From Candidatus Buchananbacteria bacterium CG10_big_fil_rev_8_21_14_0_10_33_19 (lineage in GTDB: Bacteria > Patescibacteriota > Patescibacteriia > 2-01-FULL-39-33), in contig PEZY01000005.1 of NCBI GenBank assembly GCA_002773855.1, positions 218,221-282,220 on the forward strand: a stretch of DNA of 64,000 nucleotides, written 5' to 3'. This document shows, in pieces, positions 2,769-35,408 of this stretch. Position numbers and translations under genes: made by a program. Below the pieces are notes generated by a model. That model saw nothing but the letters and a program-made list of their open reading frames with translations, did no database searches and had not been told where the DNA came from. The stretch's first letter is position 1; each line of letters begins with the position of its first letter.

Positions 2769-5700
2769 TTATTTTTTTATAAATCCAGTACCAGCTGGGA
2801 TTAATCGACCAATAATAATATTTTCTTTTAAACCAGATAAATCATCAGTTTTTCCAGTAATTGCTGCATTAATCAACACTTTGGCAGTTTCTTGAAATGA
2901 AGCAGCAGCCAACCAGCTTCGAGTTGATAATGAAACTTTAGTAATACCCAAAAGTAAACGATCAAATTCTACTTCTTGCTTACCTTCTTTTTTAAGTCTT
3001 TGATTTTCATAAGCGACGTCAATATATTCCACAACTTCACCAGGAAGCAAATCACTGTCTCCAGCATCACGAACATAAACCTTGGAGAACATTTGACGCA
3101 CAATAACTTCAGCGTGTTTATCATTTAGTTTTTGACCCTGAGAAGAATAAATATGTTGAATTTCTCTCATGATATATCTTTGAGTAAACTCTTGGCCCTT
3201 TAAACGAAATACTTCGTGTAGATCTAAACTACCCTCTGTTAATTGATCGCCTGGCTCAACCACGTCACCGTCCTGAACCAAGAGTGACACATGTCCAGGA
3301 ATGATATACTCTTGAACTCCCAATTCTTTACCAGAAATAGTAATAGAATTTTTTTCAATTTTCACAGTACCATCAACTATACTAATTTCTTGATCTTCAC
3401 CATTAGTAAACAATACTTGACCCTTAACAATCTGAGCGCCATCAGCCACTTCAATTTTTAAATCAGTTTTAGTCTTAGGTAAAGAAATTTTCTTAATAAT
3501 TTCATTATCATAACTAAGCTGTAATACTCTTTCTCTAGAAGATGTTACTAAAACTTTGCCTTCAGAATTTTTAATTTCTCGTTGACCTTGAGTAATTCTC
3601 ACACTGCCACTAACATCAGCAATAATAGCCTTGGCCTTAGGTGATCTAGTTTCAAAAATTTCTTCTACTCGAGGCAAACCTTGAGTAATATCACCTTCAG
3701 ACGCTACACCACCGGTATGGAAAGTTCTCATAGTTAACTGAGTACCAGGCTCACCCACACTTTGGGCAGCAATAATACCAACAGCTGTACCTTGTTTAAC
3801 AAGCTTATTATAACTTAAATCATAACCATAACATTTCTGACAAATACCTTTAATAGTTTTACAAGATAATACTGCTCTAATTTTAACGCTTTGTAAATCA
3901 ACTTTTCTTAAATCTTCAGCTATTTCTTCGTCAATCAAATCACCTGCTTTTACTAAAACTTTATTATTTTTTGGATTGATAATATCTTCAGCTGGATAAC
4001 GACCAACTAATCTATCTACTAAATTTTCTCCCATAGTTTCACTCTCAGTTTGAGTTAACTCTAGGCCATCTTTATCATTACAATCTTCTTCAGAAACAAT
4101 TACGTCTTGAGCAACATCAACTAGTCTTCTAGTTAGGTAACCGGCGGATGAGGTTCTAAGAGCGGTGTCAGTTAAACCCTTACGAGCACCGTGAGTAGAA
4201 ATAAAGAATTCCAAAACATCAAAACCTTTTTTAAAGTTACTCTTAACTGGCAATTCAATAACTTCATAAGACGGATTAACCACTGGTCCTTTCATACCAA
4301 TCATTTGATTTAATTGTCCCCAAGTACCACGAGCGCCCGAATCAATCATCGCTCTAACAGAATTACCTTCTGGCAAAATATCTTGAACTTTACTTAAAAT
4401 ATTATTGTTAACTTTCAACCACAATTCAACAATTTTATCGTGTCTTTCATCCTCGGTTAAAAGACCCATTTGATATTGTTGTTCAATTTCATCTAATTTA
4501 ACATTACCTTCTTCAATAAATTTTTCTCGATCAGGAATATCTTTTAAATCATCCATACCAATTGACTGAGCAGAATGAGTCAAATATTTAAAACCGTGTT
4601 CTTTTAGCAAATCCAAAACTTTAACAGTTTCTTCTGGACCAAATTGATATAAAACCTGACCCAATAGTTTAGATAAATATTTTTTAGTAATTCTTTCATT
4701 AATAAACTCCATTTCCTGAGGCAAAATATCATTAAATAAAATTCTACCAATTGTAGCATCTTGAAGTTCCATTTTCTTAATCTTCAAACCCTTTTTAGGC
4801 ATCATGACTTTAATTTGATCATGTAAAGTAATTAAACCTTTTTCTTCAGCTAGTAAAGCCTCATTAAAAGAAGAGTACACTTTTGGCTTATCATTTTCTT
4901 TCATGGTAGTTAAATAATAACAACCTAAAACGATGTCCTGGTTAGGAGTGACAATTGGTCGACCATCTGATGGCTTTAATAAATTCTTAGAAGACAACAT
5001 TAATTCAGCTGCTTCTTTTCTAGCACCTTCAGTTAAAGGTACATGAACAGCCATTTGATCTCCGTCAAAATCAGCATTAAAAGCACTACAAACTAGTGGG
5101 TGAATCCTAATAGCCTTACCTTCGGTTAAAACTGGTTTAAAAGCCTGAATACCTAGTCTATGTAGGGTTGGGGCCCGATTTAATAAGACATAAGCACCCG
5201 TTACTACTTCTTCTAACAAATCCCAAATCTCTTCGTGACCAGCTTCGATGTAGCGATTAGCACTTCTAACATTATGAACAATACCTCGTTTAATTAATTT
5301 AGAAATAATAAATGGCTTAAACAATTCCAAAGCCATTATTTTTGGGATACCACATTGATCTAGTTTTAATTCTGGACCAACCACAATAACACTTCTTCCA
5401 GAGTAATCAATACGCTTACCAAGTAAGTTTTGTCTAAATCGTCCTTGCTTACCTTTAAGCATATCCGCAATAGATTTTAACATTCTCTTTTGACCAGTTG
5501 AGGCCACCACGGTTTTACCATGTCGAGCGTTATTATCAATCAAAGCATCAACAGCCTCCTGAAGCATTCTCTTTTCATTTCTGGTAATAATTTCTGGAGC
5601 GTTTAATTCTTGAAGTTGTTTTAAACGATTGTTTCGATTGATTACTCTGCGATATAAATCATTTAAATCAGAAGTCGCAAAACGACCACCATCTAAAGGC

Positions 5701-6650
5701 ACCATTGGTCTTAAATCTGGTGGAATAATTGGTACTGTTGATAATACCATCCACTCTGGTCTAATACTGTTTTTAACCAAATGATTAAAGAATTTAATTC
5801 TTCTGATTAATTTATCTCTTTTAGCTCCAGTGGCTTTTTCTAGGTCTTTATCTAAACCAGTAATCATTTTATTAATATCCATATTTGCCAATAAACTTCT
5901 AATGGCTTCAGCACCAATACCGGCTTCAAAAATATGTCCATATTTCAAAGATAAATCATGGAAAGTATGCTCGGAAATAATCTTGAGTGGTTTTAATTCT
6001 TTAAGTTCACTTTCAGCTACATTTAAAGTATCTTCCAGTTCAGTCATTTTTTCTTCCTTTTGAGTCAATAACTTGCCAATTTGACCCTCAGCTAAATCGC
6101 CACCCTTTTCAGTCAGTTGTTTAATTCTATTATCAAAATCACCTTCAATTTGTTTGCGATACTGTTTATATTCAGCTTTAAGTTGAGCCAAAGTTTCAGC
6201 TTTTAAGTCTTCATTAACAGTAATAATTATAAAGTCAGCAAAGTAGATAACCTTCTCTAAATTCTGGATAGACATATCCAAAGCCAAACCAATTCGAGAT
6301 GGCACACCTCTTAAAAACCAAATGTGAGAAACTGGCACACACAAATCAATATGGCCCATTCTTTCTCTTCTGACCACAGCGCGGGTAACTTCTACACCAC
6401 ACTTATCACAGACAATGCCTTTGTATCTAATTTTTTTGTATTTACCACAATAACATTCCCAGTCTTTAACTGGTCCAAAAATCTTTTCGCAAAACAAACC
6501 ATCCTTTTCGGGTTTTTGAGTTCTGTAGTTTATAGTTTCTGGTCTAGTCACCTCACCAAATGACCAATCATGAATATTATCAGGGGAAGCTAGTCTTAAC
6601 TTAATTGAAGTAAAATCTTCTGAAGTTTTTTGTTCCGGGGTGTTTATCAT
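2769..6650 (-). CDS. rpoC: DNA-directed RNA polymerase subunit beta'
   Basis: 1293-aa ORF with an N-terminal zinc-binding Cys cluster ([23 protein letters not shown]), the NADFDGD catalytic motif and conserved C-terminal regions. Confidence 0.97.
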
Positions 6651-6693
6651 ATATGTATATTAAGTAAAATTACTTATTACTTTCTTAGGCGTT

Positions 6694-9600
6694 TTATTTA
6701 GATCCAGTTTCTTCAGTATTATCATCTTTTGTGTCAAGCGATTCGACTGTTTCGCTGCCGCCATTTAATTCCACATTAAGACCTAAGCCCTTAAGCTCAC
6801 GCACTAGAACATGGAAACTTTCTGGAATATTTAAATTAGTGATTGGCTCACCTTTAATAATAGATTCATAGGTTTTTGATCTGCCGACTACGTCATCCGA
6901 TTTAATAGTCAAAATTTCTTGTAAAGTATTGGCTGCACCATAACCTTCCAAAGCCCAAACTTCCATTTCACCAAATCTTTGTCCACCATGTTGAGCTTTA
7001 CCACCTAGCGGCTGTTGGGTAATCAAGGAGTATGGACCAATTGATCTTTGGTGAATTTTACTTTCAACCAAATGGTTAAGTTTTAACATATAAACATAAC
7101 CAACGGTTGTAGTTTTATCAAAAGCTTTACCGGTTCGACCATCATACAACTGAATACGACCATCAGAACTATAACCAGCCTTGCCTAATTCTTCTCTAAT
7201 TTTTTCTTCAGTAATACCATCAAATACATGAGTTGCTACCTTATAACCCAACTTATGAGCGGCTAAACCTAAATGAGTTTCCAAAACCTGACCAATATTC
7301 ATACGAGAAACTACACCTAGTGGCGATAAAATAATATCGACAGGTGTGCCATCCTCTAAGTGTGGTAAATCTTCAACTGGCACTACTTTGGAAATAACAC
7401 CCTTATTACCATGTCGTCCAGCCATCTTATCGCCCACCTGAACTTTTCTCAGTGAAGCTACAGTTACTTGAATCATTTTGATCATACCAGCAGAAAGCTT
7501 ATCACCATTTTCTCGAGAAAAGATTTTAACATCGATAACTTTACCAGAAGAACCATGTTCCATATATAAAGATGAATCTCTAACATCTCTAGCTTTTTCA
7601 CCAAAAATAGCTCTGAGCAATTTTTCTTCAGCGGATAATTCAGTTTCACCTTTTGGAGTAATCTTACCGCACAAAATATCACCTGATCTAACATTAGCAC
7701 CAATTCTGATAATACCTTCTTCATCTAAATCTTTTAATTTTTCTTCACTCACATTTGGAATATCAGAAGTCACGACTTCTGGACCAAGTTTTGTTTCACG
7801 AACTTCACAAGTATAGTCTTCAATATGAATAGATGAATATCGATCTTTTTGCACAATTCTTTCAGAAATAATAATCGCATCCTCATAGTTATAACCCTGC
7901 CATGGCATAAAAGCCACCAAGATATTTTGACCCAAAGCTAGTTCACCACCATCAGTAGCTGGACCATCAGCGATAGGTTCACCTTTTTTAATTTTTTGAT
8001 TAATAGAAACTATTGGTCTTTGATTAATACAAGTCGAAGCATTAGATCGCAAAAATTTATTCAAAATATAAGTATCAGTCTTACCTGATTTATTTTTAAT
8101 TTCAATACTATTACCACTTAAACCAACAACCTCACCAGCTTCTTTGGCTAAAATAATATGACCCGAATCTTGAGCCGCTCTAGCTTCAACACCAGTACCG
8201 ACAAGTGGTGCCTGTGGTTTAATACAAGACACTGCCTGACGTTGCATGTTTGTACCCATAAGTGCACGCACCGCGTCATCATGTTCCAAGAAAGGAATAA
8301 GTGAAGTAGCAATAGATACAATCTGATTAGAAGCTACATCCATATATTCAATATTACTAGAACTAGTAATAGTTGGTTTTAATTTTACTCTGGCTTCAAC
8401 TTTTTCTTTAATAAAATAACCTTGATCATCAAGCTTAGCGGTCGAAGTAGTTGTTGTTACTCGACTTTCTTCAAAAGCATCCAAATAAACAATTTCATCA
8501 GTCACTCTGGCCCGACCATCTTTTTCTTTGATGACTTTATAATATGGGGTCTCTAGAAAACCAAATTCATTAACTCGAGCATAACTAGACATATGACCGA
8601 CTAAACCAATATTAGGACCTTCTGGAGTAGCAATCGGACAAATTCTACCATAATGAGTAGGGTGAACGTCTCTGACTTCAAAGCCAGCTCTTTCACGAGA
8701 CAAACCACCAGGACCCATAGCGTTTAACCTTCTCTTGTGTTCTAATTCAGCCAGTGGATTGACTTGGTCCATAAACTGAGATAGCTGAGATGACATAAAG
8801 AATTCTTTCACGGCACTATTAACCGGTCTAGCATTTATTAATTTACTAGGAGTTAAAGCAGTCATATCTAAAGTGCTCATTCTGTCTTTGATAATTCTTT
8901 CCATTCTGGCCAAACCAATTCTAAATTTATTTTGAATTAATTCACCGGCCGCTCTAATTCTTCTATTGCCCAAATGATCAATATCATCAGCATCATCCTG
9001 AGTAATATTTAATCTAATAATTTCTTTAAGAATATTAATGATATCGTCTTTAAGTAAAATTCTATTTTCTTTAGTAATTGGCAAATCTACATCAAATCTT
9101 TGATTTAATTTATATCTACCAACTCGACCAAAGTCATAACGAGAAAAATTAAAGAACATATTATCAATCAACTGTTTGGCATTATCTGGAGTGGCTAAAT
9201 CACCTGGTCTAATTCTTTTATAGACTTCAATTAAGCCTTCAGCTTCATTAGTTGAAGCATCTTTTTTAAGTGAGGCTTCAATATATTTAATATCTGGATC
9301 GTTATCAACATCTTTAAATAATTCTAAAATTGATTCGTCACTATTAAAACCAAAAGCTCGAAGCAAAGTCGTAGCCGACACTTTTCTTTTGCGATCAATT
9401 TTTACCCAGATTACACCATTGTTATCGGTTTCAAATTCCAACCAAGAACCTCGATTAGGAATAACCTTAGCACCATACAATTTACCATCATTGCCAGCTT
9501 GATTACTAAAGAAGACACCAGCTGATCTAATCAGCTGAGAGACAATTACTCTTTCAATACCATTAATGATAAAAGTACCTCTGTCTGTCATCAATGGAAA

Positions 9601-9939
9601 ATCCCCAAGATAAACTTCCTGATCAACAGATTGACCAGTTTTTTTGTTCAACAAAGTAACATTAACACGAAGAGGTGCTTCGTAAGTAATGTTTTTTTGT
9701 TTACTAGTAGTCTCATCAAATTTTGGATCATCTAAAGTATAATCACCAAAATAAACTTCTAAATCACGACCAATGAAGTCAGTAATCGGAGAAACTTCAT
9801 CAAAAAGTTCCTTTAAGCCTTCATCCCAAAACCAGGCAAATGAATTCTTTTGTAGTTCGATTAAATCTGGCAGTGGTAAAACCTGCTTGTCAGAAAAACT
9901 TGTTCTTTCCATTACTTGTGTGTTTTTTTGTTGAGACAT
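6694..9939 (-). CDS. rpoB: DNA-directed RNA polymerase subunit beta
   Basis: Conserved RpoB regions through to the C-terminus. Start trimmed to the internal ATG (MSQQKNTQV); the track ORF extends to 10008 through a probable non-ATG codon. Confidence 0.95.
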
Positions 9940-10387
9940 AATATAATATTTGATTGTTATATTTTGGCTAGAATAGACGCAAAAAAGCTCATTTCTTGTT
10001 ATCCCCAATTACATTAGGTAAGAAATGAGTTATATTAATTAAGATTGTATTGGAATTGTACACCCACTATCTTTTGAAGGTTATTAACCCAATGATTGTC
10101 ATTGAAGTAGGGTTTTTTAAAATAAATCACTAAAAACAGTTATTGACATTTTAACAGAAAAAATGTATTAAAGTCAAGTGTTATACAAATTTTTAAAAAG
10201 ATGTCAAATATTTTCTTATTTTTAGCTAAATTTAAATAATTTTTATCAAATATCAATAATCATAAAGTTGATATTGTTGACAAAATAAATCTTTATTCCC
10301 CTACTTATCCACAGATAAAAAATCAGATAACTTTTATTTATCATATTTATTAGGCAAAATCATGTTATTAAACTAATACCATAATAA

Positions 10388-11716
10388 CTAACCATTCAGT
10401 AATTCACGAGCTACTTGCCGCTCATCCCAAAATGTTTTTTGATTATTTGGCCCTACAATCGCCTGCTCACACCCCTTACCAGTTAGTAAAATTAGGTCTT
10501 TTTCGCTAGCCAAACTGATAGCTTTTTTAATAGCCTCTCGTCGATCTAATATCTTAAATAAATCTCTATTAATTTCTTTGCCGCCATCATTAGCACCACC
10601 CGCCACTTCATCAATTATTTCTTGTGGATCATCATCATACGGGTCTTCATTGGTTACCACTACATAATCAGCGTGCGAAGCGGCTAACCTGCCTAAAACT
10701 GGGCGTCGATCTCGATCCCGGCCACCACCACAAGAACCTAAAACATGAATAATTTTATGCTCATTATCTACCAAATTATGCTGCCTGACACAGTCATAAA
10801 GCTGTCTTAAACTTTCTGGTTCTGGAGCATAATCCACTAACACCTTAAAATTTTGACCTTCATTAATAAATTCCATTCGTCCCGGAATACTTTCAATCTT
10901 CTCCAGTGCCTTACGACAAGCAGAAATATCAATACCCTGAGACTGGCCAACAGTAATCGCCGCAAGTGCATTATAAACATTAAACAAACCTAGTAATTTT
11001 AAACTAACTTTAGAATCATACACTTCAAAAGTGATACCATTGTCATTAAAAGAAATATTATCAGCTTCTACCTTAGCTTTTAATTCACCGTCTCGGCTTT
11101 TACCCTTAACGCCATATCCATATCTGGCATCAGCCTCATACTTCATAAAATCTTTAATATATTCATCATCGGTATTAGCGACAATCACTTTATCAATTAT
11201 CTGACCATTAATTTTTTTGTGTCTATCGTGTTTTAGCTTGGCAAACAATTGCTCTTTGGCTTTTTTATAATTTTCAAAACTCCCATGAGATTCGATATGC
11301 TCTGGTGTTAAATTGGTAAATACCGAAATATCATAATTAATACCCAAGTGTCGATGTTGAGCAATACCCTCAGAAGAAGTTTCCACTATTGCATACTGAC
11401 AACCGGCTTTAACCATATCGTGTAACATTTTTTGTAATTCGTTTCTGCCCAGCATAGTCATTTTTTTATCATTCAACCACTCTTTACTGCCAATCTTAAA
11501 CCAAGCGGTGGAAGTGGCTCCTACTATATAGCCAGCCTCTTCTAAAATACGAGCAATCATCATTACAGTTGTCGATTTACCATTGGTGCCAGTCACGCCA
11601 ATGACAATCATTTTTTCTGATGGATTGCCATAAACAATCTTACTACCAACAGCTAATGATTTATGATATTGACCTAATAATTTTTTGGGAATTATTTTTT
11701 TAATTTTTTGTTTCAT
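10388..11716 (-). CDS. murE: Mur ligase family protein; the C-terminal domain is MurE-like
   Basis: P-loop GVTGTNGKSTT. C-terminal GGGRDRDRRPVLGRLAASHADYVVVTNEDPYDDDPQEI matches the MurE GGxRDxxKRP...TxDNPRxEDP pattern. The N-terminal domain is shorter than canonical MurE. Confidence 0.6.
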   Translation of the reverse strand: MKQKIKKIIPKKLLGQYHKSLAVGSKIVYGNPSEKMIVIGVTGTNGKSTTVMMIARILEEAGYIVGATSTAWFKIGSKEWLNDKKMTMLGRNELQKMLHDMVKAGCQYAIVETSSEGIAQHRHLGINYDISVFTNLTPEHIESHGSFENYKKAKEQLFAKLKHDRHKKINGQIIDKVIVANTDDEYIKDFMKYEADARYGYGVKGKSRDGELKAKVEADNISFNDNGITFEVYDSKVSLKLLGLFNVYNALAAITVGQSQGIDISACRKALEKIESIPGRMEFINEGQNFKVLVDYAPEPESLRQLYDCVRQHNLVDNEHKIIHVLGSCGGGRDRDRRPVLGRLAASHADYVVVTNEDPYDDDPQEIIDEVAGGANDGGKEINRDLFKILDRREAIKKAISLASEKDLILLTGKGCEQAIVGPNNQKTFWDERQVARELLNG

Positions 11717-13577: not shown

Positions 13578-13694
13578 AAATAATTTAAATAGTATAAAAC
13601 GAGAAAATTATACAATAATATAGCTAAAAATTCAAGTTAAACAAAAAATAAACAAATAAAAAATAGGCAATTTAATTGCCTATTAAAACCAAAA

Positions 13695-14558
13695 TTACCT
13701 ATACAGTTGATGTGCCAAAATATAATTAAAAATATGTTCATCAAGTTCTGGCATCATTATATCTTGGTGTCTTAACCACTCTCGAACATTAGTCGAAGCA
13801 GTATCCGGCACATCACTTTCTTCGGTCAGAAAAATATGCGGTGGTCTAAGGTACCAATTAACAGATTCATTTCTTTTTACGCCAATTCTTGGCACTACCA
13901 CAAAGCGCATCATTCTTTCTAGTTCTTCATAACCTACCCAAGTGGGAAAATCATTAGCATTATCCATACCAATAATAATACTAAAATCATATTGATCTTT
14001 GGCCATCTGTTGATCTAAAAGTGTTTTAACAAAATGATAAGTTTGTCCAGCTAATTGATTTTTTATTTCAAAATCAAACACCTTAATACGACCATCGACT
14101 CTAGCTGCAATTTCGCACATCCGCAAACGGTGTTCTGGATCAATCATCTGCTTACCATTCATATGACGATAACAAGGCATTAGCCAAACTTCATCAAAAG
14201 TTTTGCTGGTATTTAAAACAAACTGAGCCAACTTGATATGACCAATTGTTGGCGGATCAAAAGCTCCGCCTAGTATAGCTACCTTTAACTTACGGCCCAA
14301 CGTTTTATACTGCTCTTCACGCCTTTGAATTTTAACCAGAGTAGCTCTAACATTTTTTTCATAATCCCAACCACATTCGTTACACAGCTGAATAGCAGAG
14401 GCTAGTAGATCTCCAACTTCTTCCTGAAGATTAGCAACACCAGTCATTCGATGAAGTTCTATAGCTTCATCTAAAATATCATTCAATCTCTGTTTTAATG
14501 GTGTTCTACCAAATGTACTTTCAAAAATATCTTTTACTTGTTTTTGTAATTTGTTCAT
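13695..14558 (-). CDS. nadD: Fusion protein: N-terminal MazG-like NTP pyrophosphohydrolase domain plus nicotinate/nicotinamide-nucleotide adenylyltransferase (NadD)
   Basis: aa 1-90: EEVGDLLASAIQLCNECGWDYE (MazG/HisE-like helical NTP-PPase). aa 95-287: VAILGGAFDPPTIGH ... IIIGMDNANDFPTW (NadD (H/T)xGH and downstream motifs). Confidence 0.75.
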   Translation of the reverse strand: MNKLQKQVKDIFESTFGRTPLKQRLNDILDEAIELHRMTGVANLQEEVGDLLASAIQLCNECGWDYEKNVRATLVKIQRREEQYKTLGRKLKVAILGGAFDPPTIGHIKLAQFVLNTSKTFDEVWLMPCYRHMNGKQMIDPEHRLRMCEIAARVDGRIKVFDFEIKNQLAGQTYHFVKTLLDQQMAKDQYDFSIIIGMDNANDFPTWVGYEELERMMRFVVVPRIGVKRNESVNWYLRPPHIFLTEESDVPDTASTNVREWLRHQDIMMPELDEHIFNYILAHQLYR

Positions 14559-14643
14559 CAGAAAGGCTTCTCCCTTGGGTTAAGTTAATTTCAAAGTACA
14601 ACTCATAATAATAGCCAACAAGGTCAAAAATGTCAAATTTAGG

Positions 14644-14690: not shown

Positions 14691-17600
14691 TTAAATTTTC
14701 TGTATCGCTAATTTAACTTCTTCACCATTTAGATTAAAACTCTTACCATGATCATCCTGATTAATTAATTTAGAGGTTAAAGTAGAATTCTTTAGTTCGG
14801 TTGAAAGTTTTTCACCAGTTAACACTTGTTTCATTATTTCGCTATCACTAGTCCACAAAACATTTATCCGATCACCAATAGTTAAGCCATCTGTCTTTCT
14901 TAAGCTATTAATAGTTCTAATTAATTCTCGAAGTAAGCCTTCTAATTTTAATTCATCAGTTAATTCTAAATCTAATTCTACTTTTATTTCTGCGCCTTTT
15001 TCAAACTCGACAGTTTTCACATTTACTTCATCAGCGATTAGTTCAGATAGTTCGACTGGCAAATCATAACCAATGACTTTTAATTTAGCTAGCGGTTGTC
15101 TAATCTTTACTCCTTTTTCTGCTCGCATAGCCAAGCCCATTTCCACAATTCGTCTCACACTCTCCATTTGATCAATTATTTTATCATCAATGTTTCCAGC
15201 TTGTGGCCATTTGGCTAAATGAACTGATTCTAATTCTCCACCCACCCCACGGTAAACAGACTCAGCTAAAAACGGGACAAACGGTGCCATTACCTTGGAT
15301 ATTTCAATTAAGACAAAATTAAAAGTAGCAATCGCTTGATTCTTATCTTCGGTATCACCAGATTTAAAACGATCTCGACTGCGTCTTAACCACCAAGTTG
15401 AAAATTCATCAATAAAATCCTGAATTGGTCGCACCGCTTTAGCCAATTGATAATTATCCATCTCTTTGGAGACAGCTACTATTAATTCATTTAACTTCGA
15501 TAACAGCCACTTATCCAAAATATTTTTAGATTGATTATTTGGTTTAATGTTTTTATCTTCATATAATTGATAAAACTTTAAAACATTATTAGTTAACATC
15601 ACCACTTTTTGGAAAGCTTCTTTAACTCCCACTTCCGAAAAATTCAAATTTTCGGATGTCATCACTGGTGATGATAATAAATAAAACCGCAAAGCGTCAG
15701 CTCCATACTTATCCATTATCAAATCTGGTTCTGGATAATTCTTTAGTCGTTTACTCATCTTATTGCCATCCTCAGCTAGTACGATACCATTAGCAATAAC
15801 ATTTAAAAAGGCTGGCTTATCAAACAAAGCCGTGGCTAAAATCATTAAAGTATAAAACCAACCTCTGGTTTGATCGACACCTTCAGCAATAAAATCAGCT
15901 GGAAAAGTATCTTGGAATTTATCTTTATTTTCAAACGGATAATGCAGTTGAGCATATGGCATCGAACCAGATTCAAACCAACAATCCAACACTTCTGGCA
16001 CTCGTTTCATTTCACCAGTACACTTTTCACATTTAAATCTGATAGTATCAACAACATCCTTATGAATATCTACTGTTCTATTTTTTAACTGGGTAATTTC
16101 GGTATTATCTGGCATATCATGATCAAAAACATTTTCCTGTTTAGTACCAGATAACTTAGCCGCCAAAACTCTAATATTATCACCATGTGAGACTAATAAA
16201 ACATTTTTATCTGGGTACTGATTTCTAATATCTTTGACAAGATCCAGCATTCTATTTTCTATATCCAAAACGCTTTCACCACCGCCAGGCAAAGATTTAG
16301 TATAAGTCTTACGCCAATCTGCTAATGCTTTTGCAGCATCCTCATTGGCATCAGACTGATCTTGTAATTCACCAGGATTGACTTCATTCAATCTTTTATC
16401 AAAAATTAACCTAAGCCCTAGGCCATCAGCAATTATTTTAGCTGTTTCTCTGGCTCGCAAAACATCCGAACTAACAATTAAATCAATGTTTAAATCTTTT
16501 ACATTTTTAATCGCTACTTCAGCTTGAGTTTTACCTTTTTCGGTTAAGGGATATTTATTTTCATCATCACTAAAAACATTTAAAACATTTTTTTCAGACT
16601 CGGCATGACGAATAGCATAAATATTGGTACTAAAAATTTTTGATTTGTCTAATTCTTCTAGTGAACCAACTACTTTAATATCATTACAATCATTACAACG
16701 CCAAACTGGTAATGGAGCACCCCAAAATCTAGATCTGGAAATCGCCCAATCCCGGGCGTCCTCTAGCCATTTACCAAAACGACCATTTTTCAAATGATTG
16801 GGAATCCAATTAACTTGTTGATTATTTTTAATTAAATCTTTTTTAATTTCAGTTACCTTCACAAACCAAGAAGAAGTGGCGTAGTTAAGTAACGGTGTAT
16901 CACAACGCCAACAATGTGGATAGCTATGTTCATATTTTTCTTTAGCAAATAACAAGCCTTTTTCGGCTAAATATTTAATAATTACCACATCCGTTTTTTG
17001 AGTATCTTCTTTGGGCTTGACCTCTAGGCCAGCAAAAGCCTCACCAGCTTCTTTTTTGATATGACCAGTTTCATCAACATGTTGAATCATTGGCAAATTC
17101 TTTTCGTTACCCAAAGCCATATCTTCTTCACCAAAAGCTGGCGCGATATGCACTACTCCCACACCATCAGTCGTCGACACAAAATCAGCCGACACAATAA
17201 TGTATAAGTTCTCCCTATAGTCTATAGCCACGTCTTTATAACAATCAAAAAGTGGTTGATATTTTTTACCAACTAAATCATGGCCTTTTAAATTTTCTAC
17301 TATCTCATAACTTTTGTCAGCAAAAACTTTCTCCAGTAAATCTTTAGCTAAAATATAATTTACATCTTCACTTTTTACTTTTACATATTCAATATCCTCT
17401 CCCACTGCCAAAGCTACATTACCAATTAAAGTCCAAGGAGTAGTGGTCCAAGCTAGAACATAAGTCCCTGGTTCATCTACTAATTCAAATTTAGCCGTCA
17501 CTGCTAAATCCTTAACATCTTTATAACCCTGAGTTACTTCAAAATTAGACAAAGTAGTTTCACAACGTGGGCAAATATGCATAGATTTATAGCCTTCATA

Positions 17601-18110
17601 AATCAAATCCTTGTCCCACAATTCTTTAAACACCCACCAAATACTTTCCATATACCATGGCTCCATAGTCCGATAATCATGTTCCATGTCTACCCATCGG
17701 CCCATTCGAGGAATTGTTTTTTTCCAAATATCAGCGTAACGCAAAACACTTAAACGACAACTTTCATTAAATTTATCAATACCAATATCTTCAATATCCT
17801 TACGACTAGTTAAATTTAATTCTTGCTCTATCATATTTTCAACTGGCAAACCATGACAATCCCAACCCCAACGGCGTTCAACATAATGACCATTCATAGT
17901 TTGATACCTTGGTACCACATCTTTCATAATACTAGCCACCAAATGACCATAATGAGGAGTACCAGTAGCAAACGGTGGGCCATCATAAAAACTAAAAACC
18001 TTACCATTTTTAGTAGCCTCTAAACTTTTGTGAAATATATTATTATCTTCCCAAAATTTTTGGATTTCTTCTTCCTTTATAACTAAAGGATTCTTTTTTT
18101 GATCACTCAT
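14691..18110 (-). CDS. ileS: Isoleucyl-tRNA synthetase (type 2, eukaryote-like) carrying an inserted histidine-phosphatase domain
   Basis: PPFATGTPHYGH, GWDCHGLP and the KMSKR (KMSKS-type) motif. C-terminal ...VLDCWFESG...EGVDQTRGWF. Start set at the internal ATG (MSDQKK). A phosphoglycerate-mutase-like domain (RHAES ... LVSHGDNIR) lies in-frame between the CxxC zinc knuckle and the DxHxP region. Confidence 0.95.
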   Translation of the reverse strand: MSDQKKNPLVIKEEEIQKFWEDNNIFHKSLEATKNGKVFSFYDGPPFATGTPHYGHLVASIMKDVVPRYQTMNGHYVERRWGWDCHGLPVENMIEQELNLTSRKDIEDIGIDKFNESCRLSVLRYADIWKKTIPRMGRWVDMEHDYRTMEPWYMESIWWVFKELWDKDLIYEGYKSMHICPRCETTLSNFEVTQGYKDVKDLAVTAKFELVDEPGTYVLAWTTTPWTLIGNVALAVGEDIEYVKVKSEDVNYILAKDLLEKVFADKSYEIVENLKGHDLVGKKYQPLFDCYKDVAIDYRENLYIIVSADFVSTTDGVGVVHIAPAFGEEDMALGNEKNLPMIQHVDETGHIKKEAGEAFAGLEVKPKEDTQKTDVVIIKYLAEKGLLFAKEKYEHSYPHCWRCDTPLLNYATSSWFVKVTEIKKDLIKNNQQVNWIPNHLKNGRFGKWLEDARDWAISRSRFWGAPLPVWRCNDCNDIKVVGSLEELDKSKIFSTNIYAIRHAESEKNVLNVFSDDENKYPLTEKGKTQAEVAIKNVKDLNIDLIVSSDVLRARETAKIIADGLGLRLIFDKRLNEVNPGELQDQSDANEDAAKALADWRKTYTKSLPGGGESVLDIENRMLDLVKDIRNQYPDKNVLLVSHGDNIRVLAAKLSGTKQENVFDHDMPDNTEITQLKNRTVDIHKDVVDTIRFKCEKCTGEMKRVPEVLDCWFESGSMPYAQLHYPFENKDKFQDTFPADFIAEGVDQTRGWFYTLMILATALFDKPAFLNVIANGIVLAEDGNKMSKRLKNYPEPDLIMDKYGADALRFYLLSSPVMTSENLNFSEVGVKEAFQKVVMLTNNVLKFYQLYEDKNIKPNNQSKNILDKWLLSKLNELIVAVSKEMDNYQLAKAVRPIQDFIDEFSTWWLRRSRDRFKSGDTEDKNQAIATFNFVLIEISKVMAPFVPFLAESVYRGVGGELESVHLAKWPQAGNIDDKIIDQMESVRRIVEMGLAMRAEKGVKIRQPLAKLKVIGYDLPVELSELIADEVNVKTVEFEKGAEIKVELDLELTDELKLEGLLRELIRTINSLRKTDGLTIGDRINVLWTSDSEIMKQVLTGEKLSTELKNSTLTSKLINQDDHGKSFNLNGEEVKLAIQKI

Positions 18111-18152
18111 ATTTTTGATATTTATTAATCCATTATGACATTTTTTGGGCAA

Positions 18153-25024: not shown

Positions 25025-26680
25025 TTAGACGGATTTTATTTTTTTAACTTTGCTTTTATCAGCTAATGGCACACTAAAAGAAAATTTACTACCTTTGTTT
25101 GGCCCAGGGCTCTCACCCCAAATACGACCACCCAAATTTTCGACTACCATGCGGGCAAAATACATGCCCAAGCCAGTACCTTCGGTATAGACTTGCATCA
25201 TACCTTTGCCTCGCACAAATTTTTCAAACAAACGCGGTAAATCTTCTGGTAGCACACCGATGCCGGTGTCCTGACAAGCAAAAACCACCGACTGACTCTC
25301 CTGATGCAGACTGACAGTGATAGAGCCATGCTCTGTATATTTAATAGAGTTATCAATTATATTAGAAATAACTTCTTTAATCTTCTGAGCATCAACTGCC
25401 ACTTCTGGTACATCTGGATCTGGATAAAACTCCAAAGATAATTTTTTATCAGTGGCTCTTTTTTGAAAACCTTCAACAATATCTTTTATAACCTTAGTTA
25501 AATCAGTTGGCTGAATATCAAACTGCAAATTACCAGATTCAATCCTAGAAATATTAAGTAGACTTTCCACCAAACTAATTAATCTTTCATTGGATAAATA
25601 AACCTTACTTAAATTATCTTTAACAATTTTAGGAATCCTACCAAAACTACCCTCTTGCATCATAGAAACATATCCCTTGATCACAGTGAGTGGAGTGCGC
25701 AGTTGATGAGAAGCGATAGACAAAAACTCTGATTTTGCTTCATCTAATTTTTTTAATTCAGTATTAACTTTCTTTAAATTATTGCTAGCCGCTTTAAGAT
25801 TATTAGTTAAAGATTCAATTTTTTCACGACGAGCAATTTCATTTAATACCGATCTAATAAGTAATAGTATAAAAAATATAGTTAATACAAACATTACTAC
25901 CCGATACACTAATTCAAAGCTTTCTTTAGCCTCCACAACATAAAAGCCAGATACAGTAACAATAAAAATAGAAAATATAATAGTTGTAATAATTTTTACA
26001 TCAATTAAACGTCGCTTGATTAAAGCATAGGCCATAAAAGCAATCCAAATTACAGTAGAAATCTGACCAATCCAATTGAGATCTAAGAAACCAAACCAAG
26101 GCAAAAATAAATTAGTGCTCAAAGAAATAAAGGATGAAGCTAATAGACCAATAAATAAATACTTTAACTGACTTCTAATTGATCCAGATGATTTATATAT
26201 ATCAGAAAATAAATTGATCAATGTCCATAAAAAATACATAGAAACATTAATAGTATAAATTAAGTAACCAGACCCAAAAACAATATTATTTCTAATTTTA
26301 GAAATAATCTGGACATCACTAACCACCATATTAGTGAACAATGTTATATAAAAAATCACTAAAGCTGGTAAGGAAATAAATAAAAGTATGAGTTTATTTC
26401 GCCAAAAAACCTTTTCCACTGGAAAAACAAAGGTAAAAAATAAAAAAAATAATGGAATGAATACAGCTACTGCATAAAATAATCTCACCAACAGTAAAGC
26501 CAAACTAACCTGAGTAATCGTATTATAAATTATAATTAAAACTGCCCATAGCACTACATTAAAAACAACTATACTAAACAAAATATTGGATTTTTTAATA
26601 GGCCGTTGTAATAATATAATAAAACCCAAGAAAAAATTTATCAGGCTGACAATTATTAAAATGATGGTTTTTATGTCCAT
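25025..26680 (-). CDS. Sensor histidine kinase with a multi-TM (about 7 TM) N-terminal domain
   Basis: H-box LSIASHQLRTPLTVIKGYVSMM and HATPase_c G-boxes (DTGIGV, GTGLGM). N-terminal 250 aa is hydrophobic. Confidence 0.85.
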   Translation of the reverse strand: MDIKTIILIIVSLINFFLGFIILLQRPIKKSNILFSIVVFNVVLWAVLIIIYNTITQVSLALLLVRLFYAVAVFIPLFFLFFTFVFPVEKVFWRNKLILLFISLPALVIFYITLFTNMVVSDVQIISKIRNNIVFGSGYLIYTINVSMYFLWTLINLFSDIYKSSGSIRSQLKYLFIGLLASSFISLSTNLFLPWFGFLDLNWIGQISTVIWIAFMAYALIKRRLIDVKIITTIIFSIFIVTVSGFYVVEAKESFELVYRVVMFVLTIFFILLLIRSVLNEIARREKIESLTNNLKAASNNLKKVNTELKKLDEAKSEFLSIASHQLRTPLTVIKGYVSMMQEGSFGRIPKIVKDNLSKVYLSNERLISLVESLLNISRIESGNLQFDIQPTDLTKVIKDIVEGFQKRATDKKLSLEFYPDPDVPEVAVDAQKIKEVISNIIDNSIKYTEHGSITVSLHQESQSVVFACQDTGIGVLPEDLPRLFEKFVRGKGMMQVYTEGTGLGMYFARMVVENLGGRIWGESPGPNKGSKFSFSVPLADKSKVKKIKSV

Positions 26681-26716
26681 AAAATATTATTTATAATCTC
26701 TTAGCTAATACTCGTT

Positions 26717-28348
26717 TTATTTTTTAACATCAGAAATTGGAATACTAAACAAAAAATTAGCGCCTTTGTTTTCTCCATCGCTTTCTACCCATATTTTACC
26801 ATTCATATTTTCTATGACCATTTTAGAAAAATAAAGATCCAAACCATTGTCACCAGTAAACGAGGATGTCGCATTATTTTTTTTAATAAACTGATTAAAT
26901 ATATCTGGTAATTTTTCTACGGCAATACCCATACCAGTATCTTGACAACTAAAAACCACTGATCCAGTATTACATGATAAACTAAGATTAATGGAACCTT
27001 GGTCGGTATATTTAATAGCATTGTCAATAAAGTGAACTATAACCTCTTTGATACGATCTGCATCAATTAAAACTTTAGGAATATTTTTATCAATAACAAC
27101 ATTTAATTTTATCTTTTTCTTTTTAAATTTTTTAACATAACTAGGAACTAAAGTCTTAATAATCTCAGAAATAGCAGTTGATTTAATATTAAATTCCAAT
27201 CTACCAGCCTCCATTCGAGATATATTCAATAGATTTTCTACTAAATTAATTAATCTTTCATTAGCAGCATAAACTTTAGTTAAATTAGTCTTAATTAATT
27301 TTGGTATTTTCCCAAAACTACCTTCTAGCATCATAGACACATAACCTTTAATAACTGTCAACGGTGTTCGTAGCTGATGCGAAGCAATGGATAAAAATTC
27401 TAGCTTAGCTTGATCAATTCTTTTAATTTTATCATTCGCTTTTTCTAAATTTTTAGTTACTTTACGTAAATCTTTTGATAATAACTCCATTTCTTCACGT
27501 CTTTTAACATCTTTTTGGACTAGTCTAATTAACAAAACAGCAAAAGTAATAGTGATAATAAAAATACCAATTCTGATAATAAAATCAATCGTAGATTTAT
27601 TAGAAAAAACATCAGTAAAAGTTACCAAGCTTAACAAAACAGCAATGACCTGCGTCGCAATTACTTTAACATTTAAAAAATTATATTTAATAATACTATA
27701 AACGATAGTTATTACAACAATAAATAAGGCGATTGGACCAGTCCAAGCGTAGCGAAAATCTCCCAAGGCCACCAAAATCATATTCACAAAACCAGAATAA
27801 ATCAACGGTAAAGAGACGCTTAAAAGAAAGATTAATATCATTTTTCGTCTTTTACCATGAGACTTAAACAATTTTAAAAATAGAATCAATAAGCCACCAC
27901 CCATATACAAAAAAAAGTAGGTAAAATAAAAGTAATATATTGGACCATACATTAAAGTTCTAACTCTATCATTAAACTCTAATCCAATAATAATCTGTCT
28001 ATTTATAAACAAGAAATGAGTTATCAATATGATGGGAATATAATAAAATAATTGAACAAATTTATTTAAAGGTATCTTCTCATCAGGATAAACCAAAGCA
28101 AAATAAAAAAAGCTGTGCGCAATAAGTGCTCCAGCTAAATGCAGAATTAACGACCAAATAAAAACATTTGTCCAATTCTCGGGTGTACTTTCATACATCA
28201 TCATAGAAAATGACCAAAATCCCAAACTAAAAGCAAATGCCGCAAACCACCGATTAATCAAACTTTTAACATTCTGAGTCAAGATGGTTAACCCTAAAGC
28301 AAAATTTAAAAAAGCAACCGAAACTAAAACTATAATTTTTATACTCAT
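26717..28348 (-). CDS. Sensor histidine kinase, a tandem paralogue of the previous one
   Basis: Same architecture. H-box LSIASHQLRTPLTVIKGYVSMMLEG is identical to the neighbour's. Confidence 0.85.
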   Translation of the reverse strand: MSIKIIVLVSVAFLNFALGLTILTQNVKSLINRWFAAFAFSLGFWSFSMMMYESTPENWTNVFIWSLILHLAGALIAHSFFYFALVYPDEKIPLNKFVQLFYYIPIILITHFLFINRQIIIGLEFNDRVRTLMYGPIYYFYFTYFFLYMGGGLLILFLKLFKSHGKRRKMILIFLLSVSLPLIYSGFVNMILVALGDFRYAWTGPIALFIVVITIVYSIIKYNFLNVKVIATQVIAVLLSLVTFTDVFSNKSTIDFIIRIGIFIITITFAVLLIRLVQKDVKRREEMELLSKDLRKVTKNLEKANDKIKRIDQAKLEFLSIASHQLRTPLTVIKGYVSMMLEGSFGKIPKLIKTNLTKVYAANERLINLVENLLNISRMEAGRLEFNIKSTAISEIIKTLVPSYVKKFKKKKIKLNVVIDKNIPKVLIDADRIKEVIVHFIDNAIKYTDQGSINLSLSCNTGSVVFSCQDTGMGIAVEKLPDIFNQFIKKNNATSSFTGDNGLDLYFSKMVIENMNGKIWVESDGENKGANFLFSIPISDVKK

Positions 28349-31391: not shown

Positions 31392-32573
31392 ATGAAACGA
31401 TCAGTCCTTTTGACAATTTTAATTTCCATTTTACTAAGCAACCAATGTTTTGCTGGTGGTCTCAATCGCATCGGTGGCATAGGCTCCCGGGCTGGTGGCA
31501 TGAGTGGTGCTTTTACTGCTATTGCTGATGATGTCACTCTCTTTTACTACAACCCAGCCGGCATGTCTCAATTTGAGACCACTTATATCGAAGCCGGGGT
31601 TGATGTTGTCGTCCCTCGCCTAAAATATAATGGTCATAATTCTGACAATGATGCTTGGCACGCCCTACCTTATGCCGGGGTAATCTATCCGGCAAACGAT
31701 CGCGTCAATATTGGACTGGGTTTGACCGTGCCTTATGGCATGGGGGCTAGCTTCAAAAAAAGTTGGCCACTACCGGAGACAGAAACTCTACTTAGTCTAA
31801 CCAATATTACACCAGCCCTGTCACTCAAATTGTGTGACAAATTTTATGTAGGCGTTGGACTCAATATCGGTTATGGCCAATTTAAATACCGGGCACCATT
31901 TGATGTTGATGGAATTTTTCTGCCCATTTGCACCGACAACGAAGCTAGTGGCTTTGGACTAGGTACTACTATTGGACTGATGTATTTTCCTACCGACAAA
32001 TTAACTTTTGGTCTCACTTATATGAGTGAGCTAAAGGTTAATTTCAATGGCGAATCTGATATTTCTATCGGCCCAATTAGTATTCGCGATAAATTCAAAA
32101 GCGACTTCACTTTCCCGCCACGTTTGGGATTGGGCATCGCCTATCAATTTACCGATAGATTAACTGTTGATTTCGATGCCAATTGGTATGGCTATTCCAA
32201 AACTGTTAACAGTATGACGCTGCAGTTTGATAAGTTAAATTTTGGCAAAACTACCAAGCTAAATTGGCAAGATAATTTTAGTCTACACCTTGGAGCTCGC
32301 TATCGCCTAAACAACGATTGGTGGCTACGAGCTGGTATGGCTTATCAAAATTCTGCTATTCCTGATTCAACCATTAGTCAATTAACACCCGATGCCAGTG
32401 GTTGGGACGTGGCCTTTGGTCTGGAATGCGAAAAAGACAACTTCTCATTTGGTGTTGGTACTATCTACGGCTGGGGTGAAAATGATGTAGAACCAAACTT
32501 CGGCGTTCGCTACCCTGGCAAGTATGAAGCTCAAACATTAACAGTTGGTCTTCAAGCTAGTTGGAAATTCTAG
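31392..32573 (+). CDS. Outer-membrane hydrophobic-compound transporter, FadL/TodX (OMPP1) family-like beta-barrel
   Basis: Signal peptide. N-terminal AGGLNRIGGIGSRAGGMSGAFTAIADDVTLFYYNPAGM resembles the FadL N-terminal hatch motif. Alternating beta-strand pattern; C-terminal Phe (SWKF). GC about 55-58%. Confidence 0.55.
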   Translation: MKRSVLLTILISILLSNQCFAGGLNRIGGIGSRAGGMSGAFTAIADDVTLFYYNPAGMSQFETTYIEAGVDVVVPRLKYNGHNSDNDAWHALPYAGVIYPANDRVNIGLGLTVPYGMGASFKKSWPLPETETLLSLTNITPALSLKLCDKFYVGVGLNIGYGQFKYRAPFDVDGIFLPICTDNEASGFGLGTTIGLMYFPTDKLTFGLTYMSELKVNFNGESDISIGPISIRDKFKSDFTFPPRLGLGIAYQFTDRLTVDFDANWYGYSKTVNSMTLQFDKLNFGKTTKLNWQDNFSLHLGARYRLNNDWWLRAGMAYQNSAIPDSTISQLTPDASGWDVAFGLECEKDNFSFGVGTIYGWGENDVEPNFGVRYPGKYEAQTLTVGLQASWKF

Positions 32574-34868: not shown

Positions 34869-35408
34869 ATGAAAAATAGAAAACTACAAATTGGAGTCAT
34901 GGGATCAGCAGCTGATTTAAAATATTCAAAAGATATAGAACAAATAGCTCTTGAGGTTGGCAGATTAATTGCTAAAAGCGGCAACATTACAATTTATGGT
35001 GCTGAAAAAGATTATGATTCATTATCTACAGCCGCCGCCAGAGGAGCCAAAGAAGAAAATGGTATTACTGTTGGTATTACTTATGATAAAGGCAAGGAAA
35101 TTTGGGACCAAGAAAATAATACTGACGTCATAATTTGCACTGGCATGGGCCGAGGTGGTGGTCGAGAATTTGTCTTAGTAAACAGTTGTGACGCCATTAT
35201 TACAATCTCTGGTGGGTCTGGCACGCTAACAGAAATAGCTATTGCCTATCAAGCTAATATTCCGATTATTGCCATTACTGGTACTGATGGCTGGAGCGAC
35301 AAACTAGCCAATGAATTTTTAGACAGTCGTAAAAGAGTTTTAGTAACTGCTGCTAAAACTCCTCAAGAAGCCGTAGACACTTGTCTTGAAATATTAAACA
35401 AAAAATAA
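34869..35408 (+). CDS. LOG/TIGR00725-type SLOG Rossmann-fold nucleotide-binding protein
   Basis: IGVMGSA...GGGREFVLVNSCDAIITISGGSGTLTEIAIA follows the LOG-family GGxGT.xE pattern. Confidence 0.6.
   Translation: MKNRKLQIGVMGSAADLKYSKDIEQIALEVGRLIAKSGNITIYGAEKDYDSLSTAAARGAKEENGITVGITYDKGKEIWDQENNTDVIICTGMGRGGGREFVLVNSCDAIITISGGSGTLTEIAIAYQANIPIIAITGTDGWSDKLANEFLDSRKRVLVTAAKTPQEAVDTCLEILNKK

Follow-up and report, generated by a model that had tools for sequence, protein, structure and literature searches.

A candidate bifunctional NadD with an N-terminal MazG-type domain, found mainly in huge phages and resident in a Falkowbacteria genome

The window analyzed here is a stretch of 64,000 nucleotides from contig PEZY01000005.1 (positions 218,221 to 282,220 of the forward strand; GenBank assembly GCA_002773855.1, Candidatus Buchananbacteria bacterium CG10_big_fil_rev_8_21_14_0_10_33_19), and it encodes a protein of 287 amino acids (aa) in which a MazG-type domain is fused to nicotinate-nucleotide adenylyltransferase, NadD (termed the MazG-NadD protein herein). 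The fusion is a conserved family that occurs mainly in huge phages and is common to a few bacterial lineages. We hold, with about as much confidence as doubt, that it is a bifunctional NadD with a MazG nucleotide-pyrophosphatase as its damage-control partner, belonging to a huge-phage family and carried as a resident housekeeping-type gene in Falkowbacteria, a lineage of the candidate phyla radiation (CPR). The activities of the two domains, the substrate on which MazG acts, and the coupling between the domains are inferred rather than measured. Databases already contain the protein under the name "NadD," but we found no description of a MazG-NadD/NMNAT (nicotinamide mononucleotide adenylyltransferase) fusion in the searchable literature.

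RESULTS

A MazG-type domain and a complete NadD domain share one reading frame

A preliminary description of the window had proposed a single 287-aa open reading frame (ORF) with a MazG-type domain in its N-terminal ∼90 aa and a complete NadD/NMNAT domain behind it, and it had named a missing MazG match or a frameshift as findings that would speak against this. Neither was found, and the proposal held up: the frame is uninterrupted from 13695 to 14558 on the minus strand (by ORF call and by direct reading), the N-terminal domain (N-domain) has Pfam and profile matches to MazG, and the architecture is conserved in relatives. The strings quoted at the time lie at aa 46 to 67 (EEVGDLLASAIQLCNECGWDYE), 97 to 107 (GGAFDPPTIGH), and 194 to 207 (IIIGMDNANDFPTW). 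An identical protein (NCN07694.1/PIS06325.1, our P0001) carries the database labels "hypothetical protein" or "probable nicotinate-nucleotide adenylyltransferase" and the deposited organism label Candidatus Falkowbacteria, and it was found in 45 sample blocks of the searched collection.

In a Pfam scan of the full protein, aa 32 to 82 matched PF03819 (MazG) with 24.0 bits (gathering cut-off, 22; E value, 4.8e-5), and the N-domain scored by itself reached 27 bits, a small margin over the same cut-off of 22. All of the 20 family N-domains tested passed it, so that, judged by sequence, the PF03819 score is marginal for the single protein and solid for the family. A profile built from these 20 N-domains matched the catalytic C-terminal domain of Escherichia coli MazG (3cra) with an E value of 8.8e-8 and Thermotoga maritima 2yxh with one of 4e-5. 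The acidic motifs of the window protein are D30-E31-A-I-E34 and E46-E47-V-G-D50, and hidden Markov model (HMM) alignments placed E31/E34 and E46/E47/D50 on the EExxE and EExxD/EExGD motifs of E. coli MazG and 2yxh. The ExxD motif binds Mg2+ in MazG proteins (PMC4491611). When modeled alone with AlphaFold2 (AF2), the N-domain formed four helices (predicted local distance difference test [pLDDT], 94.5), and matches 1 to 12 of a Foldseek search of the PDB were all of the MazG type, most with query template modeling scores (TMq) of 0.64 to 0.76 and 2yxh with 0.55 to 0.56. The leading matches were 3cra (0.75), 7ody (0.71), and 1vmg (0.70), and 5ie9 and 2gta were also among them; HisE and the dimeric dUTPases were placed below the MazG-type structures. 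The Foldseek E values were weak (0.01 to 0.1), as expected for a helical domain of 90 aa. By sequence, motif, and predicted fold, the N-domain is thus assigned as an all-alpha nucleoside triphosphate (NTP) pyrophosphohydrolase domain of the MazG type. The window copy keeps all five metal-binding acidic residues (E31, E34, E46, E47, and D50), which the preliminary description had left to be checked, and its basic residues are R24, K76, and R80. Because the Mg2+-binding set and the phosphate-binding pair K76/R80 are kept, the N-domain of the window protein is most likely active as a nucleotide pyrophosphohydrolase.

The C-terminal part matched PF01467 (CTP_transf_like) over aa 95 to 260 with 55.9 bits (cut-off, 21; E value, 6.7e-15), and among proteins of solved structure, bacterial NadD enzymes come closest to it (8aih, with an E value of 1.3e-17, 1kam, and 3hfj). 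It carries the NadD motifs TxGH (in G97-G98-A-F-D-P-P-T104-I-G-H107) and SxTxxR (in A254-S255-T256-N-V-R259); G98, P102, H107, and S255 do not vary among 120 aligned sequences, in which the conservation of T256 and R259 is 90% or higher. The full-length AF2 model, made from the 120-sequence alignment (pLDDT, 93.4; predicted template modeling score, 0.79), shows four helices followed by a Rossmann-like domain, and its best 50 Foldseek matches were nicotinate or nicotinamide mononucleotide adenylyltransferases, nearly all of them bacterial NadD. Against the NadD structures 3e27, 8aih, and 1kaq, the target-normalized TM score was 0.83 to 0.88, with a root mean square deviation of 2.4 to 3.4 Å over ∼200 columns. 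Taken together, sequence, motif, and predicted fold identify the C-terminal domain as a complete NadD. No solved structure spanning both domains was among the PDB matches of the full model. The junction between the two domains is nearly invariant, with Q83, Y84, G88, R89, and K90 identical in all 120 sequences, and the linker region has a pLDDT of 79 to 87.

MazG domains are intact in part of a conserved fusion family and degenerate in the rest

A homology search with the window protein returned 849 homologs. Coverage of the query is 90% or more in each of the best 120, at 52 to 72% identity; most of these 120 were already annotated with both Pfam domains. When the N-domain profile was searched against 1.84 billion cluster representatives, 97 clusters (at 50% identity) matched at E ≤ 1e-10. 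They fall into three groups, namely, fusions of ∼285 to 320 aa, longer forms of 556 to 763 aa, and short proteins that are mostly fragments from short contigs, and ordinary tandem MazG proteins turned up only above an E value of ∼1e-7. Since its close matches are fusions, longer forms, or short proteins, this MazG subfamily is essentially NadD specific. Its signature consists of F12, F16-G-R-T-P, D27, W64, and Q83-Y84, and it is conserved to a similar degree as its partner (mean pairwise identity of 56% for the N-domain versus 58 to 63% for NadD). The closest unfused NadD proteins are spirochetal (Spirochaetales loci L006 to L009; 39 to 50% identity). Two short N-domain proteins were checked for split MazG/NadD gene pairs of the Rosetta-stone kind, and NadD adjoined neither.

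When 200 members were aligned to the N-domain profile, 148 had all five acidic ligands and 52 had lost at least one. The degenerate copies still keep F12, F16, T19, P20, R24, D27, G49, E61, W64, K76, R80, Q83, and Y84, and the ExxE motif is degenerate in every non-CPR cellular copy (Aureispira, L003; Planctomycetota, L004 and L005). Because many members have kept the N-domain after losing catalytic residues, its retention suggests an additional structural or regulatory role.

Some of the longer forms carry an NAD kinase hit, and none of the six tested reached PF03819. In the Schlesneria metagenome-assembled genome (MAG) CAIULL010000081.1 (L004, positions 2775 to 7281), a 762-aa fusion protein is encoded immediately downstream of NadE; it comprises a MazG-like domain with a degenerate ExxE motif, NadD, a segment of ∼230 aa, and an NAD kinase (GGDG motif, PF01513). 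The ∼230-aa segment begins like a nucleotidyltransferase (STFDPP), the second such start in this protein. Similar forms of 556 to 763 aa are P0188, P0207, P0199, P0213, P0222, and P0253, and P0222 and P0253 are without a detectable NadD Pfam match.

The fusion gene is broken by a frameshift in a few relatives. In three IMG/VR contigs from different metagenomes (L024, L025, and L026), it lies at the identical position (∼6150 to 6170), right after EETGDLL within the MazG domain, and in L005 it lies in the last MazG helix (∼6270 to 6320). These frameshifts could reflect sequencing error, pseudogenization, or programmed frameshifting.

The family occurs mainly in huge phages

The preliminary description had framed the fusion as a feature of a reduced genome, and the distribution of the family did not bear this out. 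All 10 of the non-Falkowbacteria homologs that were looked up directly lie in phage-like contexts with many small unannotated ORFs, and their neighbors include sigma factors, Rnl2-type RNA ligase, Tpt1, NT5C, metallophosphoesterases, RtcB, or the PolIII alpha subunit. A further 28 viral contigs in IMG/VR carry the fusion, and many of these are 230 to 680 kb long. It is also encoded in the record of a 735-kb uncultured phage (LR756501), where 99% of the query, including the N-domain, aligned with 51.6% identity (tblastn). There was no match in PHROGs (families of cultured phages) or PADLOC and no full-length match in BFVD (structures of UniProt viral proteins).

Among 185,579 species-representative genomes, a pattern-limited scan found five full-length copies, in a Promethearchaeota-labeled contig of 3.2 kb, a Saccharofermentanales contig, Aureispira, Schlesneria, and a Planctomycetota MAG. 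The fusion had been called uncommon, which holds for cellular genomes and does not hold overall, given 849 homologs and 97 clusters. Three of the five copies have cellular neighbors: Aureispira (YceG, LptD, and MlaD), Schlesneria, and the Planctomycetota MAG (MutS). The Saccharofermentanales MAG JBBAEW010000012.1 (L002) has many neighboring gene families in common with the IMG/VR contigs L011 and L012. The taxonomic labels of L002 and of the Promethearchaeota MAG SHMU01000253.1 (L001) probably stem from the binning of phage DNA into these MAGs. In a neighbor-joining tree of the family, which is star-like, the Falkowbacteria clade falls among sequences whose examined contexts are phage-like, without resolved support.

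Genes of NAD salvage adjoin the fusion in relatives

We surveyed 39 related loci, in which only recurrent neighbors were annotated. PncB lies within ∼6 kb of the fusion in seven of the 39, a PncA-like isochorismatase is nearby in five, and NadE in three (L010/L038 and L004). In L011 (positions 5992 to 11035), the order on one strand is fusion, PncA-like gene, and PncB; other loci with a PncA-like isochorismatase and/or PncB beside the fusion are L002, L012, L019, L013, L030, L037, and L043. No operon partner is conserved across the phage loci, the recurring NAD genes among the 39 loci being PncB, the PncA-like gene, and NadE only. Preiss-Handler salvage runs from nicotinamide through nicotinate, nicotinate mononucleotide (NaMN), and nicotinate adenine dinucleotide (NaAD) to NAD. 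Because PncA-like, PncB, and NadE genes of this route adjoin the relatives, the neighborhoods support, indirectly, a true NaMN-type NadD.

The phage NAD-reconstitution pathways (NARPs) are defined by gene pairs, Adps and Namat (NARP1), Nampt and Nmnat (NARP2), and PnuC and NadR (NARP3). None of these partner pairs was among the annotated neighbors of the phage loci, which have PncA-like, PncB, and NadE genes instead. The phage set of PncA, PncB, fusion, and NadE is a Preiss-Handler route from nicotinamide to NAD and differs in this from NARP1 to NARP3 as so defined.

Genes of RNA repair and nucleotide metabolism also recur near phage copies (L042, L045, L050, L051, L038, and L043), namely, those for Rnl2-type RNA ligase, the NAD-dependent RNA 2'-phosphotransferase Tpt1 (PF01885), the 5'-nucleotidase NT5C, metallophosphoesterase, RtcB, and phage sigma factors. 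Because Tpt1 consumes NAD, NAD supply and RNA repair may be linked in these phages.

The fusion gene is resident in the window genome

The window contains full-length rpoB and rpoC, isoleucyl-, arginyl-, threonyl-, and histidyl-tRNA synthetases (IleRS, ArgRS, ThrRS, and HisRS), FtsH, TsaD/TsaE, a Mur ligase, and RuvA. The possibility that it is a misbinned huge phage was rejected on the strength of rpoB/rpoC, the four aminoacyl-tRNA synthetases, and the other cellular genes, together with the composition of the fusion gene (35.6% GC; 24% GC at third codon positions), which is like that of its neighbors. An ortholog of the same architecture (P0002; 72% identical) lies in the same IleRS/U32 peptidase/RuvA/Mur-ligase neighborhood in a related genome. 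The gene is resident in the window genome and faster evolving than its surroundings, since it is syntenic in this relative with 72% identity versus 82 to 90% for the flanking housekeeping genes. Only P0002 to P0005 (68 to 72% identical) cluster tightly with the window protein, and synteny is shown for P0002. A recent phage insertion is not supported, the gene being syntenic in this relative; an older transfer from a phage is possible. In the annotated parts of the window, there is no further gene of the NAD pathway, including PncA-like, PncB, and NadE.

The gene is flanked by a promoter-like site and a terminator-like hairpin (Table 1), which suggests that it forms a monocistronic unit. The promoter-like site is a consensus match only, of a kind no more common in the region than expected from shuffled sequences; the hairpin has a 10-bp stem and a T tail, and two such sites were found versus 0.6 expected in shuffles.

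Table 1. Features of the MazG-NadD gene and other genes in the window (positions are counted from the first letter of the window)
Feature	Position	Strand	Details
MazG-NadD fusion coding sequence	13695..14558	minus	single 287-aa ORF, ATG start, stop codon 13695-13697
MazG-type four-helix domain, aa 1-88	14295..14558	minus	helices 3-16, 21-37, 41-62, 66-85
Junction Q83-Y84-x-x-L87-G88-R89-K90	14289..14312	minus	links last MazG helix to NadD strand beta-1; near-invariant
NadD (nicotinate-nucleotide adenylyltransferase) domain, aa 91-287	13698..14288	minus	GGAFDPPTIGH (T104-x-G-H107), W207, A254-S255-T256-x-x-R259
Promoter-like TTGACA-17 nt-TATTAT	14608..14636	minus	∼50 nt upstream of the fusion start codon; 11/12 consensus matches
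Shine-Dalgarno-like GGGAG	14570..14574	minus	∼11 nt upstream of ATG; from sequence (reverse complement of ctccc)
Intrinsic-terminator-like hairpin AATAGGCAAT-TAA-ATTGCCTATT, then T-run	13652..13684	minus	10 nt past the stop codon
Isoleucyl-tRNA synthetase	14691-18152	minus	1153 aa
Two tandem histidine kinases	25025-28348	minus	551 and 543 aa
FadL/TodX-type outer-membrane beta-barrel transporter	31392-32573	plus	PF03349, E value of 3e-43
SLOG cluster-4 protein	34869-35408	plus	LOG-like, PF18306

Four other loci of the window deserve mention. The isoleucyl-tRNA synthetase has a His_Phos_1 domain (PF00300) inserted between two tRNA-synt_1 segments (IYAIRHAESEKN), an insertion that is also present in the related genome (L040 and L041). 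The two histidine kinases are paralogs with a common N-terminal seven-transmembrane sensor (HisKA_7TM, HisKA, and HATPase_c), and the SLOG protein adjoins tRNA-His and HisRS. If CPR bacteria have no outer membrane, the FadL/TodX-type transporter comes as a surprise in a genome labeled Falkowbacteria.

DISCUSSION

Proposed function and alternative explanations

In the mechanism that we propose, the NadD domain would, to judge from its sequence, adenylylate NaMN with ATP and so make NaAD in the penultimate step of NAD synthesis. For the MazG module, we envisage the removal of noncognate or damaged (deoxy)nucleoside triphosphates ([d]NTPs) ahead of their use by NadD or the cleavage of misassembled dinucleotides, and the domain probably has a structural part as well, in oligomerization or at an interface with NadD. 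In huge phages, the fusion would serve a phage-encoded Preiss-Handler NAD salvage (PncA, PncB, NadD, and NadE), while in the Falkowbacteria genome it would act as a resident, separately transcribed housekeeping-type gene. By analogy, damage control appears to be the best-supported rationale for the fusion, and such a coupling is plausible because proofreading by NadD-YqeK provides a published precedent. In JCVI-Syn3A, NadD is promiscuous and forms wrong NaAD analogues from dATP, CTP, or UTP; YqeK hydrolyzes these analogues and 8-oxo-GTP as well, which was read as proofreading combined with nucleotide sanitizing (bioRxiv 10.1101/2021.12.01.470718). The channeled or regulated NAD synthesis that the preliminary description had suggested stays an inference.

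Several observations weigh against this proposal. About 26% of the sampled members are without the full catalytic acidic set, which indicates that parts of the family can do without N-domain catalysis, and in some members most or all of the acidic ligands are gone (for example, QKKGN in L035/L036 and, in the cellular copy of Aureispira, QKASD). The NadD equivalog model TIGR00482 (NCBIfam) scored 106.7 bits in an alignment spanning the entire model (positions 1 to 194), just under its cut-off of 112.45, and the preference for NaMN versus nicotinamide mononucleotide (NMN) is not readable from the sequence of the fusion. A coupling in which MazG would pull the NadD reaction by removing pyrophosphate (PPi) was rejected, as MazG enzymes release PPi, itself a product of NadD. 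Finally, the phage copies show, on the whole, little conservation of their gene neighborhoods, and the star-like tree gives no direction for a putative transfer between phage and bacterium.

The main rival explanation, which we consider unlikely, is that the MazG-like domain is mainly noncatalytic and acts as a scaffold for dimerization or tetramerization or as a nucleotide-sensing regulator of NadD. The members that lost acidic ligands yet kept the signature residues speak for it, as do the ExxE-degenerate non-CPR cellular copies, the NAD-kinase-bearing long forms that fall short of PF03819, and the nearly invariant junction to NadD; MazG-fold proteins are, moreover, obligate oligomers. However, the window protein and 74% of the members keep the five acidic residues together with K76/R80, which is hard to explain without selection for binding of metal and triphosphate. 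In addition, NadD folding should be independent of the MazG domain, since close unfused NadD relatives exist in the Spirochaetales.

A more far-reaching version of our own proposal is doubtful as a whole. Here, MazG would be a dedicated partner of NAD synthesis that proofreads or preempts wrong-nucleotide NaAD analogues or senses nucleotides to gate NadD; huge phages would combine the fusion with PncA, PncB, and NadE to rebuild NAD by a fourth route, of the Preiss-Handler type, that counters NAD-depleting immunity, and Falkowbacteria would share the enzyme as a housekeeping NadD by horizontal transfer.

Less probable than the main rival is that two unrelated activities were joined by accident or genome economy, with MazG as a sanitizer of the nucleotide pool (dNTP or [p]ppGpp) and NadD working independently, the two being uncoupled. 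MazG genes are common auxiliary genes of phages, a phage MazG-like protein (7ody) is among the best fold matches, and the gene neighborhoods of the fusion are variable, all of which would fit such a history. Against this, the N-domain subfamily almost never occurs alone or with other partners, its attachment to NadD by a nearly invariant linker is kept in phages and in three or more bacterial phyla, also in the forms with an added NAD kinase, and YqeK and Nudix provide two independent precedents of an NMNAT-family enzyme with a nucleotide pyrophosphatase. An artefact, that is, a frameshift or assembly error joining two genes or a chance similarity to MazG, is refuted beyond reasonable doubt: a Pfam score just 2 bits over the cut-off and the frameshifted relatives (L005 and L024 to L026) are outweighed by the continuous frame, the recurrence of the identical protein in 45 sample blocks, the syntenic ortholog, the coverage of at least 90% in the best 120 homologs, the profile match to E. 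coli MazG, and fold matches confined to the MazG type.

Comparison with known systems

NadD-YqeK (JCVISYN3A_0380, and the nadD-yqeK operons of Firmicutes) resembles the fusion in that NadD and a metal-dependent nucleotide pyrophosphohydrolase share one polypeptide in a minimal genome. However, YqeK is an HD-domain protein (COG1713) located C-terminal to NadD, whereas the hydrolase here is an all-alpha MazG domain on the N-terminal side, and there is no homology between the two hydrolases. The match of the MazG-NadD protein to NCBIfam model PRK07152 (361 aa) was limited to the NadD half of the model, and no HD or Nudix Pfam match was found in the protein at E ≤ 1.

NadM-Nudix enzymes are bifunctional NMN adenylyltransferases/ADP-ribose pyrophosphatases, known from Synechocystis and Francisella and, in the NARP2 pathway, as NatV of phage KVP40, and an annotated phage example of this type was among the matches of the BFVD search. 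They, too, combine an adenylyltransferase of the NMNAT superfamily with a nucleotide-diphosphate hydrolase, are phage borne, and are tied to NAD rebuilding. They differ in joining an archaeal-type NadM to Nudix and in using the NMN route with Nampt, whereas the PncA, PncB, and NadE neighbors of MazG-NadD relatives belong to the NaMN route. The MazG-NadD protein is not a member of either the NadD-YqeK or the NadM-Nudix enzymes and would be similar to them at most by analogy.

Like MazG proper (E. coli 3cra/3crc, Bacillus subtilis YpjD 2gta, Bacillus 5ie9, Sulfolobus solfataricus 1vmg, and MazZ of cyanophage S-2L, 7ody), the N-domain has a four-helix fold, EExxE...EExxD motifs, and a K...R pair in its last helix, but it forms a distinct, NadD-linked subfamily with its own signature, about one-quarter of which is catalytically degenerate. 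Further hallmarks of the MazG family are assembly into homodimers or homotetramers, by which the active site is completed, and Mg2+-dependent cleavage of NTPs at the alpha-beta bond. Papers on NMN engineering list E. coli MazG as active in NAD+ hydrolysis and overexpress it to raise NMN, a weak lead that is not evidence for the domain described here. A study of "NAD-jumbo phages" (Microbiome 2024, PMC11662467) reported phage nadD genes and pncB-nadD-nadE clusters, and a nadD in the 735-kb phage is named there. In that study, the gene counts as an ordinary nadD, its text is without the words MazG, pyrophosphohydrolase, or fusion, and the cellular CPR and Planctomycetota copies lie outside its coverage.

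Significance

For annotation, hundreds of proteins labeled just "NadD" or "hypothetical" have an unremarked second domain, and the unexpected aspect of the family is that it belongs mainly to huge phages and is common to a few bacterial lineages rather than being a mark of a reduced genome. With intact and degenerate catalytic sites side by side, it offers a natural experiment in the passage from enzyme domain to scaffold. If the MazG domain truly acts on substrates or products of NadD, the fusion would be the third independent case, after Nudix and HD/YqeK, in which an NMN/NaMN adenylyltransferase is combined with a nucleotide pyrophosphatase. Such a third case would speak for a general requirement for a damage-control or regulatory partner in NAD synthesis. 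Under the same condition, the family would also join the NAD-rebuilding counterdefense strategies of phages, of which NARP1 to NARP3, as defined above, are without a PncA/PncB/NadD/NadE route.

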